Assembly (NCBI GenBank): GCA_015064255.1
Contig: SVSP01000002.1
Span: 127,462 to 191,461 of the forward strand
DNA: 64,000 nucleotides
Source of the DNA: Oscillospiraceae bacterium
Lineage (GTDB): Bacteria; Bacillota; Clostridia; Oscillospirales; CAG-272
Direction: 5' to 3'
Below are positions 35,923 to 40,732 of the stretch, in pieces (position 1 is the stretch's first letter; every line of letters begins with the position of its first letter). Position numbers and translations under genes: made by a program. The notes under the pieces were generated by a model that was given only the letters and a program-made list of their open reading frames with translations, was not told where the DNA came from and did no database searches.

Positions 35923-37197
35923 ATGATAAAAATATTTGAAGATATAAAAAATATAGATAAAACTCTCCTTTTTAACCGTTCGCTTTCGGCATCGGGTGTT
36001 GAGGATATCGTAAGTGATATAATTTCAAACGTGCGCAGCCGCGGCGACGAGGCACTTTTTGAATACACAGAGCGTTTCGACAGAGCAAAGCTGACATCTC
36101 TTGAGGTATCAAAGGAAGAAATCGAAAAGGCTGTCAGCGAGATCGGCGAAGAATTTATGGGAGTTTTGCGCCGTGCGGCTGAAAATATTGAAGCATTCCA
36201 CAAAAGACAGGTAAGAAACAGCTTTATTATAAACGAGAAAAACGGCGTGGTTACCGGACAAAAGGTGATTCCTCTTGCCAAGGTCGGAATTTACGTTCCG
36301 GGTGGCACGGCGGCTTATCCGTCCTCCGTGCTTATGAATGCAATTCCCGCGAAGCTCGCAGGAGTAGGCGAGATCATTATGGTTTCACCCGCAAGCGGAG
36401 GAAAGATTGCTCCCGCTATTCTTGCGGCGGCATACGTGGCAGGAGTTGACCGCGTGTTCGCTCTCGGCGGAGCGCAGGCTGTTGCAGCACTCGCATACGG
36501 AACAAAGAGTGTTCCTATGGTTGACAAGATAGTCGGACCGGGTAACGCGTTTGTTGCAGAGGCGAAGCGTCAGGTTTACGGTCAGGTTGCGATAGATATG
36601 ATCGCAGGGCCGAGCGAAATTCTCGTAATTGCAGATAAAAATTCAAATCCCTCTTACGTTGCCGCCGATATGCTTTCGCAGGCAGAGCACGACAAAAATT
36701 CGACCGCGGTTCTTATTACCGACAGCATTGAGCTTGCTGAAAAGGTTTCGGACGAGCTTGAACGTATGATCCCTCTTCTTCCGAGAGCCGAGATCGCCCG
36801 CGCTTCTGTCGATAACAACGGAAAGATCATCGTTACCGACGATCTCCTCGAAGCGATTGAGCTTTCAAACGATATCGCTCCCGAGCATCTTGAGCTTTGT
36901 CTTGACGATCCTTTTGCTGTTCTTGACCGTGTGAAGAATGCAGGATCGGTATTTATGGGAAGATATTGTCCCGAAGCTCTCGGCGACTACTTCGCAGGAC
37001 CCAATCACACACTTCCCACCAGCGGAACTGCAAGATTCTCAAGCCCTCTTTCTGTTGACGACTTCGTTAAGAAAATGCAGTACACCTACTTCACCAAGGA
37101 AGCGCTCGGCGAGGTTGCAGACGACGTTATGGCTTTTGCCGAAAAAGAAGGTCTCTCCGCACACGCACGCAGCGTAGGAGTACGCAAAGGGACTTAG
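35923..37197 (+). CDS. hisD: Histidinol dehydrogenase
   Basis: 424 aa; QAEHD motif and GDYFAGPNHTLPT. The stop TAG lies inside repeat hairpin 37193-37211. Confidence 0.95.
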   Translation: MIKIFEDIKNIDKTLLFNRSLSASGVEDIVSDIISNVRSRGDEALFEYTERFDRAKLTSLEVSKEEIEKAVSEIGEEFMGVLRRAAENIEAFHKRQVRNSFIINEKNGVVTGQKVIPLAKVGIYVPGGTAAYPSSVLMNAIPAKLAGVGEIIMVSPASGGKIAPAILAAAYVAGVDRVFALGGAQAVAALAYGTKSVPMVDKIVGPGNAFVAEAKRQVYGQVAIDMIAGPSEILVIADKNSNPSYVAADMLSQAEHDKNSTAVLITDSIELAEKVSDELERMIPLLPRAEIARASVDNNGKIIVTDDLLEAIELSNDIAPEHLELCLDDPFAVLDRVKNAGSVFMGRYCPEALGDYFAGPNHTLPTSGTARFSSPLSVDDFVKKMQYTYFTKEALGEVADDVMAFAEKEGLSAHARSVGVRKGT

Positions 37198-37336
37198 GGT
37201 TCTGCCCTAAGAACCCGCCAAAACCCTTTTTGTAAAGAAGGTTAAAACGATTTGCGCGCAAATCGTTTAAGAATTCCCAAAAACTTTACTAAAAGGGGGA
37301 ATTATAATTGTAGGGACAGGCGTCCTCGACTGTCCG
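37193..37336 (+). repeat. Modular hairpin element copy (hp1 + interrupted hp2 + box + hp4)
   Basis: hp1 cttagggttctgccctaag at 37193-37211. hp2 is interrupted by the perfect 24-nt palindrome aaacgatttgcgcgcaaatcgttt at 37245-37268. Box at 37275-37295; hp4 tgtagggacaggcgtcctcgactgtcc at 37309-37335. Confidence 0.85.
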
Positions 37337-37360
37337 CTTGAAGAAATACAGGTTAATATT

Positions 37361-38440
37361 ATGAGTAAATATATGAACAAAAAATACGCCGAGCTTACGG
37401 CGTACACACCCGGCGAACAACCGCTTGGTGTCAAATACATAAAGCTTAATACAAACGAGTCCCCCTTTCCGCCCTCTCCCGACGTGCTCGTGTCGATAGG
37501 CTACGGCGAGCTTTCCGATCTTCGTCTTTACTCCGACCCCGATTGCCGCGGACTTCGCAAGGCGCTCGGAGAGTTCTACGGACGCGAAACCGACGAGATT
37601 TTCGTTTCAAACGGCTCGGACGACATTCTGAACTTCGCATTTATGGCGTTTTCCGAAAGGGGCGTTGTCTTTCCCGATATAACCTACGGTTTTTACGAGG
37701 TCTATGCGAAGCTGCACGGTGTAAATTACGAAAAAAAGCCTCTTTGCGATGATTTCACCATAAAAACCGAAGATTATCTTAACGAAAACGGCAAACTTAT
37801 AGTTATCGCAAATCCAAATGCACCGACCGGAATTTTTAAACCGCTTGGCGAAATCGAGCGTATACTTAAGGCAAATCCCGACAGCGTTGTGCTTGTCGAT
37901 GAAGCGTACATTGATTTCGGCGGCGAAAGCGCCCTGAAACTGCTTGACAGCTACAAAAATCTGCTTGTCGTACGTACTTATTCCAAGTCAAGAAGCCTTG
38001 CGGGAGCGCGTCTTGGATTCGCTTTCGCGGATAAAGAAATTATTGCCGATCTTAATAAGCTGAAATTCTCGACCAATCCGTACAGCATCAACCGACTTAC
38101 ATTAATTGCGGGCGAAGCGGCTCTTCGGAACGGAAAATATTATGAGGACAACGCGAAAAAGATCATCGAAACACGAGAATACGTTACAGAAAAACTACGC
38201 GAAATGGGCTTTGAGGTTATAGAGTCTGCGGCAAATTTCGTTCTTGCAGGACACGACGCGATTTCCGGCTCGCTTTTTGCTGAAGAAATGAAAAAACGCG
38301 GTATTCTGATAAGACATTTCTCGGGCGTACGTCTTGAAAAATATAACCGCATAACGATAGGAACTCGCGCCGAAATGGACGCTTTCCTCTTCGCCGCTGA
38401 GAAGATTATAGCCAAGGGCGCTGCCCTTGGAACCCGCTAA
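37361..38440 (+). CDS. hisC: Histidinol-phosphate aminotransferase
   Basis: 359 aa class-II aminotransferase with the PLP lysine region RTYSKSRSLAG. The last 9 codons are encoded by repeat hp1 and linker. Confidence 0.9.
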   Translation: MSKYMNKKYAELTAYTPGEQPLGVKYIKLNTNESPFPPSPDVLVSIGYGELSDLRLYSDPDCRGLRKALGEFYGRETDEIFVSNGSDDILNFAFMAFSERGVVFPDITYGFYEVYAKLHGVNYEKKPLCDDFTIKTEDYLNENGKLIVIANPNAPTGIFKPLGEIERILKANPDSVVLVDEAYIDFGGESALKLLDSYKNLLVVRTYSKSRSLAGARLGFAFADKEIIADLNKLKFSTNPYSINRLTLIAGEAALRNGKYYEDNAKKIIETREYVTEKLREMGFEVIESAANFVLAGHDAISGSLFAEEMKKRGILIRHFSGVRLEKYNRITIGTRAEMDAFLFAAEKIIAKGAALGTR

Positions 38441-39174: not shown

Positions 39175-39791
39175 TGATAGCGATAATTGACTACGGAGTG
39201 GGAAATCTTTTCTCGCTCGGCTCGTCGCTTGCCGCACTCGGCATAGATTCGGTAGTTACGGATGACGAAGCAGTAATAAGAAACGCGGATAAAATAATTT
39301 TGCCCGGAGTCGGCGCGTTCAGAGATGCGTCCGAAAAGCTCGCCGAGCGCGGATTTGATAAGCTTCTCAAAGAGCTCGCGGCGCGGGGCAAGCCGATTAT
39401 GGGAATTTGCCTCGGTATGCAGCTTCTTTTCGATGAAAGCTATGAGTTCGGCAGATATAAAGGTCTCGGACTTATAAAAGGCAGCGTTAAGCCGATAGCG
39501 GACATTATTCCCGCAGACCTTAAAATCCCTCATATCGGTTGGAACGGACTGATTTTCCCCGAAAATAAGGATAAAAACGAGATATTTAAATACATTAACG
39601 AGGGCGACTGCGTTTATTTCGTTCACTCATACTACGCAACCGATTGCGATGATGCGGTAATTGCAAACACCTCGTACGGTGCGCCCCTTACAGCCGCAGT
39701 TGCTTCGGGAAATGTTTACGGCTGTCAGTTCCACCCCGAAAAAAGCGGAAACGTGGGACTTTCGATAATAAAGGCATTTGCCGAGCTTTAA
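39174..39791 (+). CDS. hisH: Imidazole glycerol phosphate synthase, glutamine amidotransferase subunit
   Basis: 205 aa with the catalytic GICLGMQ motif and C-terminal QFHPEKS. Confidence 0.9.
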   Translation: MIAIIDYGVGNLFSLGSSLAALGIDSVVTDDEAVIRNADKIILPGVGAFRDASEKLAERGFDKLLKELAARGKPIMGICLGMQLLFDESYEFGRYKGLGLIKGSVKPIADIIPADLKIPHIGWNGLIFPENKDKNEIFKYINEGDCVYFVHSYYATDCDDAVIANTSYGAPLTAAVASGNVYGCQFHPEKSGNVGLSIIKAFAEL

Positions 39792-39812
39792 TTACATTAA
39801 AAGGACAAAACT

Positions 39813-40526
39813 ATGATAATTTTTCCTGCAATAGATCTTTACGAGGGCAAGGCGGTGCGTCTTTACAAGGGCGACTATGCACAGCTCACGGTTTATGATG
39901 AAAATCCGATAAATACGGCAAAAAAATTTGTAGCAGAAGGCGCGACACATATCCATATGGTTGACCTTGAGGGCGCGCGTGACGGCAACACCCCGAATTT
40001 CGAAACAGTAAAACAGATAGTTACTTCGACCGATCTTTTTGTTGAGATCGGAGGCGGAATACGCGATATGGAAACTATCGACAAATATCTTTCTATCGGT
40101 GTTGGACGTGTTATTCTCGGTACGGCGGCTGTTTCAAGCGAGGGATTTGTAGAGCGTGCCGTAGCTAAATATGGCGACAAAATAGCAGTCGGGGCAGATA
40201 TAAAGGACGGCGAGATAGCCGTTAAAGGCTGGGTAGAAAAAAGCGGTGTCAAGAGCGACGATTTCTTTGAAAAAATGCAGAAGATCGGCGTAAAAACTGT
40301 TATTTGCACCGATATCTCGCGCGACGGAGCTATGCGCGGTACAAATCTTGAGCTTTACAAGTCGCTTTCTGAAAAATATGATATGAACATAATTGCTTCG
40401 GGCGGTGTTTCTTCGATGGACGACGTTATCGCACTTCGCAAAATGAACGTTTACGGCGCGATAATCGGCAAGGCTTATTACACCGGCGCTATCAAGCTCT
40501 CGGATGCGCTTAGGGCTCTGCCCTAA
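39813..40526 (+). CDS. hisA: ProFAR isomerase
   Basis: 237 aa; MIIFPAIDL N-terminus and (beta/alpha)8 HisA pattern. The last codons and the stop lie in repeat hairpin 40509-40527. Confidence 0.9.
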   Translation: MIIFPAIDLYEGKAVRLYKGDYAQLTVYDENPINTAKKFVAEGATHIHMVDLEGARDGNTPNFETVKQIVTSTDLFVEIGGGIRDMETIDKYLSIGVGRVILGTAAVSSEGFVERAVAKYGDKIAVGADIKDGEIAVKGWVEKSGVKSDDFFEKMQKIGVKTVICTDISRDGAMRGTNLELYKSLSEKYDMNIIASGGVSSMDDVIALRKMNVYGAIIGKAYYTGAIKLSDALRALP

Positions 40527-40732
40527 GAACCCGCCAAGGGCGCTGCCCTTGGAACTCGCCAAAGAACTTTTTGTAAAAAGTTCTTTGGAATCTCAAAAAC
40601 TTTACTGAAGGAAATATTATTATTTCTTTTTAAGAAAAGTTTTTGAATGGGTTTGGGAAAACTTTTTTCAAAAAGTTTTCCCAAGAGAACGTTTTAGAAA
40701 GGCATGGAAAACCTTTTATTAAAAGGTTTTCC
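40509..40732. repeat. Composite modular hairpin element (two hp1, forward unit, reverse unit, extra hp2)
   Basis: hp1a at 40509-40527; hp1b at 40534-40552; hp2 at 40559-40588; box at 40591-40610; box-rc at 40627-40650; hp2 at 40653-40684; hp2-like ggaaaaccttttattaaaaggttttcc at 40706-40732. Confidence 0.9.

Follow-up and report, generated by a model that had tools for sequence, protein, structure and literature searches.

The 64,000-nucleotide window analysed here (contig SVSP01000002.1 of an uncultured gut Oscillospiraceae bacterium, positions 127,462 to 191,461 of the forward strand) carries about 14 units of a palindromic repeat composed of a hairpin and a conserved box, and in its his operon copies of this repeat supply the stop codons and C-terminal residues of hisD, hisC and hisA. 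We consider it probable that a high-copy, non-autonomous palindromic repeat, of the kind represented by repetitive extragenic palindromes (REPs) and their hairpin-forming doublets (REPINs) or by miniature inverted-repeat transposable elements (MITEs), has replaced the ends of these genes at junctions that were formerly ATGA overlaps. All units lie within the first 41 kb, every one of them intergenic or overlapping a gene end, and they adjoin pepF, galE, carB/pyrK, hisD, hisC, hisA, an AP-endonuclease-family gene and an ATP-grasp gene. Gene identities (hisG, hisD, hisC, hisB, hisH, hisA, hisF, carB, pepF and galE) were assigned with NCBIfam models scoring above their cut-offs.

The anatomy of the repeat was determined by searching for repeats and for patterns and with a covariance model. 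The basic unit consists of a hairpin, hp2, followed by the box GGAAYCC-CAAAAACTTTnCTGAAAA (also written GAAYCC..CAAAAACTTTnCTGAAAA); hp2 has the invariant loop TTTTTGAAAAAAG and a stem that is hypervariable yet always complementary. Upstream there may be one or two tandem copies of an optional GC-rich, short-loop module, hp1, each followed by a linker, (G)AACCCGCC. This module occurs as variant A (CTTAGGGyTCTGCCCTAAG), variant B (CCAAGGGCGCTGCCCTTGG) and variant C (CTCrGGGGCTTTGCCCCyGAG) and, as far as its letters can tell, hp1 with its linker looks like a short-loop hp2 with its box (compare the metagenome copies CTTAGGGGCC-TTTTTGAAAAAA-GGCCCCTAAG-AACCCC). Full copies have a second, inverted unit and end right before the ribosome-binding site of the next gene. 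They are 130-215 nt long and non-coding, with inverted units (L and R) of about 55 nt set 20-35 nt apart and with the variable stems as their outermost ends; solo units are common too. In both orientations the hairpin side is turned toward the gene and the box away from it.

The his gene ends and the elements that follow them are arranged as listed here, with covariance-model scores in bits.

35923-37197, plus strand: hisD, ending in ..SVGVRKGT, with its TAG stop (37195-37197) in the 5' arm of hp1 (cTTAGgg).
37193-37211, plus strand: hp1 variant A at the hisD end, a 7-bp GC hairpin, CTTAGGGTTCTGCCCTAAG.
37212-37295, plus strand: rest of the hisD-hisC element, with linker AACCCGCC, a degenerate hp2 holding a nested hairpin (AAAACGATTTGCGCGCAAATCGTTT) and box CCCAAAAACTTTACTAAAA; the unit at 37241-37295 matches the covariance model with 33.8 bits.
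37361-38440, plus strand: hisC, with its last nine codons (AKGAALGTR) formed by hp1 (gCCAAGGGCGCTGCCCTTGG, 38412-38430) and then linker AACCCGC, and its TAA stop (38438-38440) opening the hp2 stem.
38412-38437, plus strand: hp1 variant B (CCAAGGGCGCTGCCCTTGG) and linker AACCCGC at the hisC end.
38435-38489, plus strand: L unit of the hisC-hisB junction, hp2 (AAAGAAC-TTTTTGAAAAAA-GTTCTTT) and box GGAATCTCAAAAACTTTGCTGAAAA, 67.2 bits.
38511-38568, minus strand: R unit of the hisC-hisB junction, an inverted copy that stops just 5' of the hisB ribosome-binding site, 73.6 bits.
39813-40526, plus strand: hisA, with its tail LRALP and its TAA stop (40524-40526, in cccTAAg) read from hp1.
40509-40527, plus strand: hp1 variant A (CTTAGGGCTCTGCCCTAAG) at the hisA end.
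40534-40552, plus strand: second tandem hp1, variant B, of the hisA-hisF junction with its own linker AACTCGCC (repeat family D6, spacing 25).
40557-40611, plus strand: L unit (hp2 and box) of the hisA-hisF junction, 63.7 bits.
40628-40685, minus strand: R unit of the hisA-hisF junction, predicted to pair through its box with that of the L unit, 73.1 bits.
40705-40733, plus strand: extra AT-rich hairpin immediately 5' of the hisF start (40741).

These coordinates bear out the initial annotation, which had placed the hisD stop in the cttaggg of hp1, run the hisA frame through hp1 to a taa, read the last nine hisC codons from hp1 plus linker with the stop opening hp2, and located the carB stop (28163-28165) directly against hp1, with hp1 beginning 3 nt after the pepF stop and 9 nt after that of galE. 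The exact hairpin pattern is found at 2 loci, compared with 0.11 matches expected. The NCBIfam models end at residue 421 of 424 in HisD, 348 of 359 in HisC and 231 of 237 in HisA, before the tails, and the element-encoded residues therefore lie outside the conserved cores.

To compare these tails with those of relatives, 80 his loci were collected by scanning genomes with HisB. In the close relatives L001-L003, with his proteins 88-97% identical, the element occupies the same junctions with different hp1 modules, and the tails consequently differ. Taking the window and L001-L003 together, HisD ends in VRKGT, VRKGTPSL or, in L003, LRALI; HisC ends in AKGAALGTR, KK (where hp1 is lacking), KGAAL or KETALS; and HisA ends in LRALP, IAQGLCP, ISQGLRP or IARARA. 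Outgroup proteins, from about 70 loci without the element, have conserved and different ends (HisA ..DLKEAIEVAK or ..DALEAAK, HisC ..EILEE.., HisD ..IRFEDEK). A protein-database search with HisA gave 46 cluster representatives in the element-bearing clade and 71 in the outgroup. In the clade the 232-residue cores are 90.5% identical and the tails 31% identical, with 14 tail variants of 5-21 residues; in the outgroup the cores are 82% and the tails 67% identical, with 10 variants in all and a 5-residue tail in 67 of the 71 representatives.

All the clade tails can be read as hairpin, linker or hp2-loop sequence. AKGAAL comes from hp1 variant B and AQGLCP from variant B or C, and the endings ..PHQETF and ..PCQETF arise where the frame stays open across hp1, linker and hp2 5' arm as far as the loop TGA. 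One frame of variant A gives LRAL[PI], which ends both HisA of the window and HisD of L003. In L142 the hairpin CTTAGGGTTTCACCCTAAG carries a compensatory C-G to T-A change in its stem, and LRALP becomes LRVSP. From these comparisons the C-terminal tails of the his proteins are not ancestral. Element-free orthologues with identical endings, the finding that by the initial annotation would have refuted it, were not seen. The nearest empty site, in L137 (HisA 82% identical), has an ATGA overlap of hisD and hisC and a HisD that ends in ..SVGVRKKDI; by this comparison only the stop and roughly the final two residues of the window HisD are new, the residues up to VRK being native. That native stretch, prior plausibility apart, is what favours the view that the tails are ancestral protein that merely resembles the repeat, or else an assembly artefact. 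Such a view is scarcely credible given the conserved and different outgroup tails and the shared LRAL[PI] ending of two different proteins; moreover, window positions 36313-44026 are 99.8-100% identical across four independent metagenome assemblies, so no assembly artefact is involved.

The junctions themselves differ from those of the outgroup, where hisA and hisF overlap in 61 of 68 loci, hisC and hisB in 49 of 76 (26 more lie within 30 nt) and hisD and hisC in 41 of 69 (19 more within 30 nt). The outgroup overlaps are 4-nt ATGA overlaps; the clade has gaps of 111-269 nt instead. The downstream starts of hisC, hisB and hisF are native and lie 20-60 nt past the element. Since the TGA of the first gene and the ATG of the second have bases in common in such an overlap, an insertion that preserves the ATG opens the upstream frame, and its end falls within the insert. 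We propose that in this lineage the repeats would have colonised the narrow gap that separates a stop from the ribosome-binding site after it. The his operon would have offered no such gap, its ancestral junctions being ATGA overlaps, and insertions that spared the downstream start would have deleted the upstream stop together with a few terminal codons. The upstream frame would then run into the first hairpin until a TAG, TAA or TGA closed it, whether in an hp1 arm, where hp1 joins the linker or in the hp2 loop. Later turnover of the hairpins, with modules duplicated, deleted or replaced and stems altered in compensatory fashion, would carry the C-terminal residues along passively.

The initial annotation had further supposed that stop codons carried in the hairpin arms can replace the original stop. 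This stands for hp1 variants A (TAG/TAA) and C (TGA) but not for variant B, whose arms bear none, and it does not extend to an enrichment in stops. Stops within a unit are found in the loop (TGA), in the box (TGA or TAA) and at some positions of the stem. Only 2 of 58 units have all three frames closed, compared with 33% in shuffles; the element is not enriched in stops, and frames that contain one are fewer than in shuffled sequence. The idea of a selected safety feature, with a stop in every frame, was rejected on this count, and the stops in the hairpin arms are incidental rather than designed.

Occupancy varies from genome to genome. The hisD-hisC junction is empty in L137 and occupied in the window, the hisH-hisA and hisF-hisIE junctions are occupied in L137 only, and hisG-hisD is occupied in L001 only. 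Variant A appears at non-orthologous sites, namely hisD and hisA in the window and hisC and hisD in L003. By the covariance model, 3 of 77 outgroup his loci carry units (L017, L021 and L026), and the HisD of L026 ends independently in ..GDAQGLCP within a variant-B hairpin. Real genes in unrelated metagenome contigs also end in the element: the loop TGA serves as the stop of GH127, CinA, radical SAM enzyme and RecX-like genes, and a CoA-enzyme activase gene ends at a stem TAG. Together with the non-ancestral tails and the overlapping or closely spaced outgroup junctions, these differences in occupancy agree with the earlier suggestion that insertion took place at or into the extreme 3' ends of genes. 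The L001 insertion at hisG-hisD was considered as a marker of the element boundaries and set aside; it is degenerate and of different sequence, and does not define them. In L137 a diverged subfamily (GGGAACGG..TCGCT..AAAAGCTCCGCAAAACTTTnCTGACGAAAAAG) lies directly at the hisH, hisA and hisF stops (L137 5700-6000, 6720-6900 and 7660-7910).

Structural conservation of hp2 was assessed in a set obtained by scanning metagenomes for loop plus box, comprising 54 contigs, each with a different complementary stem. In this set 90% of the stem cells are paired, compared with 60% in shuffles, and 218 double changes occur, compared with 75; none of 500 shuffles reaches these values. Loop and box are invariant across distant contigs, and even close relatives have different stems in their orthologous copies (the pepF copy of the window and L126; the hisC-hisB copy of the window, L001, L002 and L003). 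The predicted folds, in which the L box pairs with the R box, are far more stable than those of shuffled sequences (z = -8.0 and -9.7). A scan for terminators gave 10 terminator-like sites where 11.7 were expected, which is no excess, and called neither hp1 nor hp2, and a sigma-70 promoter scan found no signature at the units. Ordinary terminators are present elsewhere in the window, and the units sit inside operons.

Covariation of this strength, with the invariant loop and box, the very stable folds with their pairing L and R boxes and the consistently gene-facing hairpin side, could also mean that the units are host regulatory RNA structures, that is, modules for processing or stabilising mRNA that are kept by selection, with the altered tails as a tolerated side effect. 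The stem formed by the L and R boxes would then be a double-strand-specific cleavage site, and hp2/hp3 protective end hairpins. The location of the units in operons, with no terminator or promoter signature and hence probable co-transcription, fits this as well. We nevertheless find the explanation quite unlikely, because both orientations of the unit occur, the same junctions are differently occupied among relatives, the distribution is patchy (3/77 outgroup his loci), partial and degenerate copies are present and no Rfam family matches; it would in any case be compatible with mobility, as for the REPs of E. coli. Those REPs are mobile and functional at once. For the his operon we infer a single transcript that runs through the elements, which fits a promoter upstream of hisZ. 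The best sigma-70-like promoter of the region lies at 34085-34113 (TTGACT, 17-nt spacer, TAAAAT, upstream TG), 5' of hisZ (34151); with this as the likely operon promoter, the units should be co-transcribed with the his genes.

Returning to the spread of a mobile palindromic repeat, which would have proceeded by transposition or recombination, several observations weigh against it. No transposase family recurs among the 121 open reading frames (ORFs) flanking units, and neither an autonomous copy nor a related insertion sequence (IS) was seen in the 54 metagenome loci or the 80 genome loci. No target-site duplication was found on comparing occupied with empty junctions, whose divergence is high enough to hide one. 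The last 4-5 native HisA codons are absent and not extended, which requires either that they were deleted or that the insertion fell upstream of the junction. The only apparent empty site in a close relative (P0021/L135; HisA 94% identical, IEVAK tail, ATGA with hisF) had to be discarded as well: this contig has 1066 nt and 1.6x coverage, its identity to the window ends at 40492 and its hisF part is of different composition, and it is probably a chimera or a recombinant. Finally, divergence of the stems around an invariant loop and box is not what plain copy-and-paste spread predicts, and suggests selection on structure or correction of one arm by the other. In a further idea, unlikely in our judgement, the hairpin-box unit is an undescribed element present across gut Clostridia lineages, with loop TTTTTGAAAAAAG and 3' box CAAAAACTTTnCT as the recognition site of a trans-acting factor and with stems kept by arm-to-arm correction. 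The factor would in that case be a new hairpin-specific transposase, or an RNA-binding or RNA-processing protein; the units would divide operon mRNAs into segments and adjust termination at the stops they contain, and the hairpin would dictate the C-terminal residues.

In nearly all independent cases the hairpin side lies 0-10 nt from the stop, or over it, including sites outside operons (pepF +3, galE +9, carB 0) and the diverged L137 subfamily. This regularity might reflect an insertion machinery that targets stops or gene 3' ends, such as a sequence- or structure-specific single-strand transposase, and a REP family with a GTAG foot in the same spacers hints at a REP-associated tyrosine transposase (RAYT) in these genomes. 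We judge such targeting very improbable. There is no conserved 5' target motif before hp1, the flanks of 19 hp1 copies being unrelated, and both orientations occur in one region, unlike the strictly strand-specific insertion of IS200/IS605. In addition, the neutral space that follows a stop, up to a ribosome-binding site or terminator, measures from a few nt to about 30 nt, and a space so small means that filtering alone predicts proximity to stops. Selective filtering of insertions would thus suffice under the replacement of gene ends by a mobile repeat that we favour.

The repeat shares with the E. coli REPs and their bacterial interspersed mosaic elements (BIMEs; REPINs) the form of short, high-copy intergenic palindromes that build mosaics and inverted doublets inside operons. 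As for REPs, which are short repeats of 21-65 nt, folding and covariation show hairpins, here in many copies that are intergenic or overlap gene ends, and the inverted doublets are predicted to form a long hairpin. It differs in that hp1 and hp2 lack the defining 5' GT[AG]G foot (hp2 is preceded by ..CCGCC), in that the conserved part is the loop and the 3' box while the stems are hypervariable, and in that copies enter the reading frame. To our knowledge no RAYT goes with the hairpin-box repeat. A paper that summarises Liang et al. (2015) states that many E. coli REPs lie 1-20 nt from the upstream stop and are able to stall terminating ribosomes, with less translation if the distance is below 16 nt (PMC12306157). 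REPs have also been linked to mRNA stability, and their definition calls for a cognate RAYT gene as well as the GT[AG]G foot (PMC6006769). As in MITEs, there are terminal inverted repeats, a length within 50-500 bp and no coding capacity, with ends formed by variable stems as an atypical trait. An intrinsic terminator, with a GC-rich hairpin and a U-tract, was not recognised.

A close parallel is given by QMITE1 and QMITE2 of Coxiella burnetii, which overlap the 3' ends of functional genes (ubiB, pntAA, mutT, nagZ, recN, ruvB and others) by 1-50 bp; EnhC of one strain takes 33 C-terminal residues and the stop after them from these repeats, and between strains an indel decides whether an ORF reads into the QMITE (PMC5896051). 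Overlap of gene ends by REP- or MITE-type repeats is thus already known, from the Coxiella QMITEs and from E. coli REPs near stops. The QMITEs belong to a different organism, are unrelated in sequence and have defined terminal inverted and direct repeats, and a comparable turnover of many tails at one gene is not described there. Mycobacterial interspersed repetitive units (MIRUs; Supply et al. 1997) are reportedly intercistronic operon repeats with ends over the upstream stop codon. Unlike the present repeats, which are palindromic, hold genes 111-269 nt apart and supply no start codon, MIRUs are tandem direct repeats with small ORFs over the downstream start that preserve translational coupling; an ORF spanning the upstream stop and the downstream start was not found here, where the stop comes from the element and the starts are native. 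Rickettsia palindromic elements (RPEs; Ogata et al. 2000) are said to be palindromic repeats within protein-coding sequence that are translated. They enter gene interiors in frame and add an internal peptide, in contrast to the extreme C-terminus and stop affected here.

The repeat family has no match in Rfam or in the literature searched, including a search for descriptions of REPs in Clostridia, and literature searches by sequence strings returned primers alone. At gathering and E-value thresholds Rfam gave no relevant family, and the window matches at gathering score were RNase P RNA and one tRNA only; sub-threshold matches were dismissed as chance hairpins. Readings of the box as a CodY box, an integration host factor (IHF) site or a sigma-factor site were judged by eye and rejected, as the partial matches leave the conserved CAAAAACTTT core uncovered. 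Integron attC sites, dif/Xer sites and hairpins of diversity-generating retroelements (DGRs) were likewise rejected: their core motifs are all absent, and the neighbours are housekeeping genes.

These results imply that the C-termini of housekeeping enzymes can evolve by the rules of a hairpin and not by selection on the protein, HisA having 14 tails over cores about 90% identical and one tail change that is a compensatory stem substitution. For annotation, odd C-termini and widened intercistronic gaps in metagenome assemblies can be repeat-derived and need not be errors. Repeats can break up tightly overlapping operon junctions without gene loss, and such junctions offer a natural test of the cost of lost translational coupling and of a stable hairpin at a stop codon.

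A second repeat in the same spacers, GTAGGGACnGGCGTCCTCGACnGTCC, has the canonical REP form and is the only one with the GT[AG]G foot. It occurs twice in the window, at 28469-28494 on the minus strand and in the hisD-hisC spacer:

37310-37335, plus strand: second repeat, GTAG foot and hairpin, GTAGGGACAGGCGTCCTCGACTGTCC.

The two n positions of GTAGGGACnGGCGTCCTCGACnGTCC covary. The motif is exactly kept in distant outgroup genomes and forms REPIN-like inverted doublets about 75 nt apart in L017 and L021 (L017 8447-8575; L021 4884-4909, 9472-9595 and 11530-11652); the GTAG doublets of L021 enclose no transposase. Hairpin-box units are present in only three outgroup loci, and L017 and L021 are among them.

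Within the hisD-hisC copy of the window a nested hairpin, AAAACGATTTGCnnGCAAATCGTTT, lies inside the degenerate hp2 loop (37240-37270). The same variant is found at a non-orthologous site, the hisA-hisF copy of L142 (about 1965-2019), a relative with 86% DNA identity. The AT-rich hairpin at 40705-40733 is stable, holds the sole AAGG upstream of the hisF ATG and is kept in L002, L003 and L142; it may sequester the hisF ribosome-binding site.

Outside the his operon the window contains these further copies.

28166-28243, plus strand: hp1 variant B (28166-28184) and L unit, abutting the carB stop (28163-28165), 68.3 bits.
28329-28382, plus strand: second L unit of the carB-pyrK spacer, 60.2 bits.
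28535-28592, minus strand: R unit upstream of the pyrK-like gene (28611), 67.1 bits.
3702-3779, plus strand: hp1 variant C (3702-3720) and L unit, 3 nt past the pepF stop and 5' of an ordinary terminator.
20232-20309, plus strand: hp1 (20232-20250) and L unit, 9 nt past the galE stop.
16-191, both orientations: four units clustered so as to overlap one another, 5' of the gene at 216.
13287-13310, minus strand: partial copy with linker ACCCGCC and box and without the hairpin, 4 nt past the stop of the minus-strand gene 13314-14141.

The convergent intergenic region at 12866-13313 (448 nt) holds two partial minus-strand units, several unrelated GC-rich hairpins and an ordinary terminator. A class A RNase P RNA lies at 15826-16217 on the plus strand (261.8 bits), and the minus-strand ORF at 15725-16132 is a spurious overlap of it; a tRNA-Met gene occupies 62276-62349 on the minus strand. 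The 30-nt direct repeats at 9850-9963 are ordinary coding repeats, encoding the Ala/Pro-rich linker of a biotin carrier protein (9787-10185, plus strand, AMKM motif) whose gene lies in a decarboxylase operon with PYC_OADA (11468-12865).

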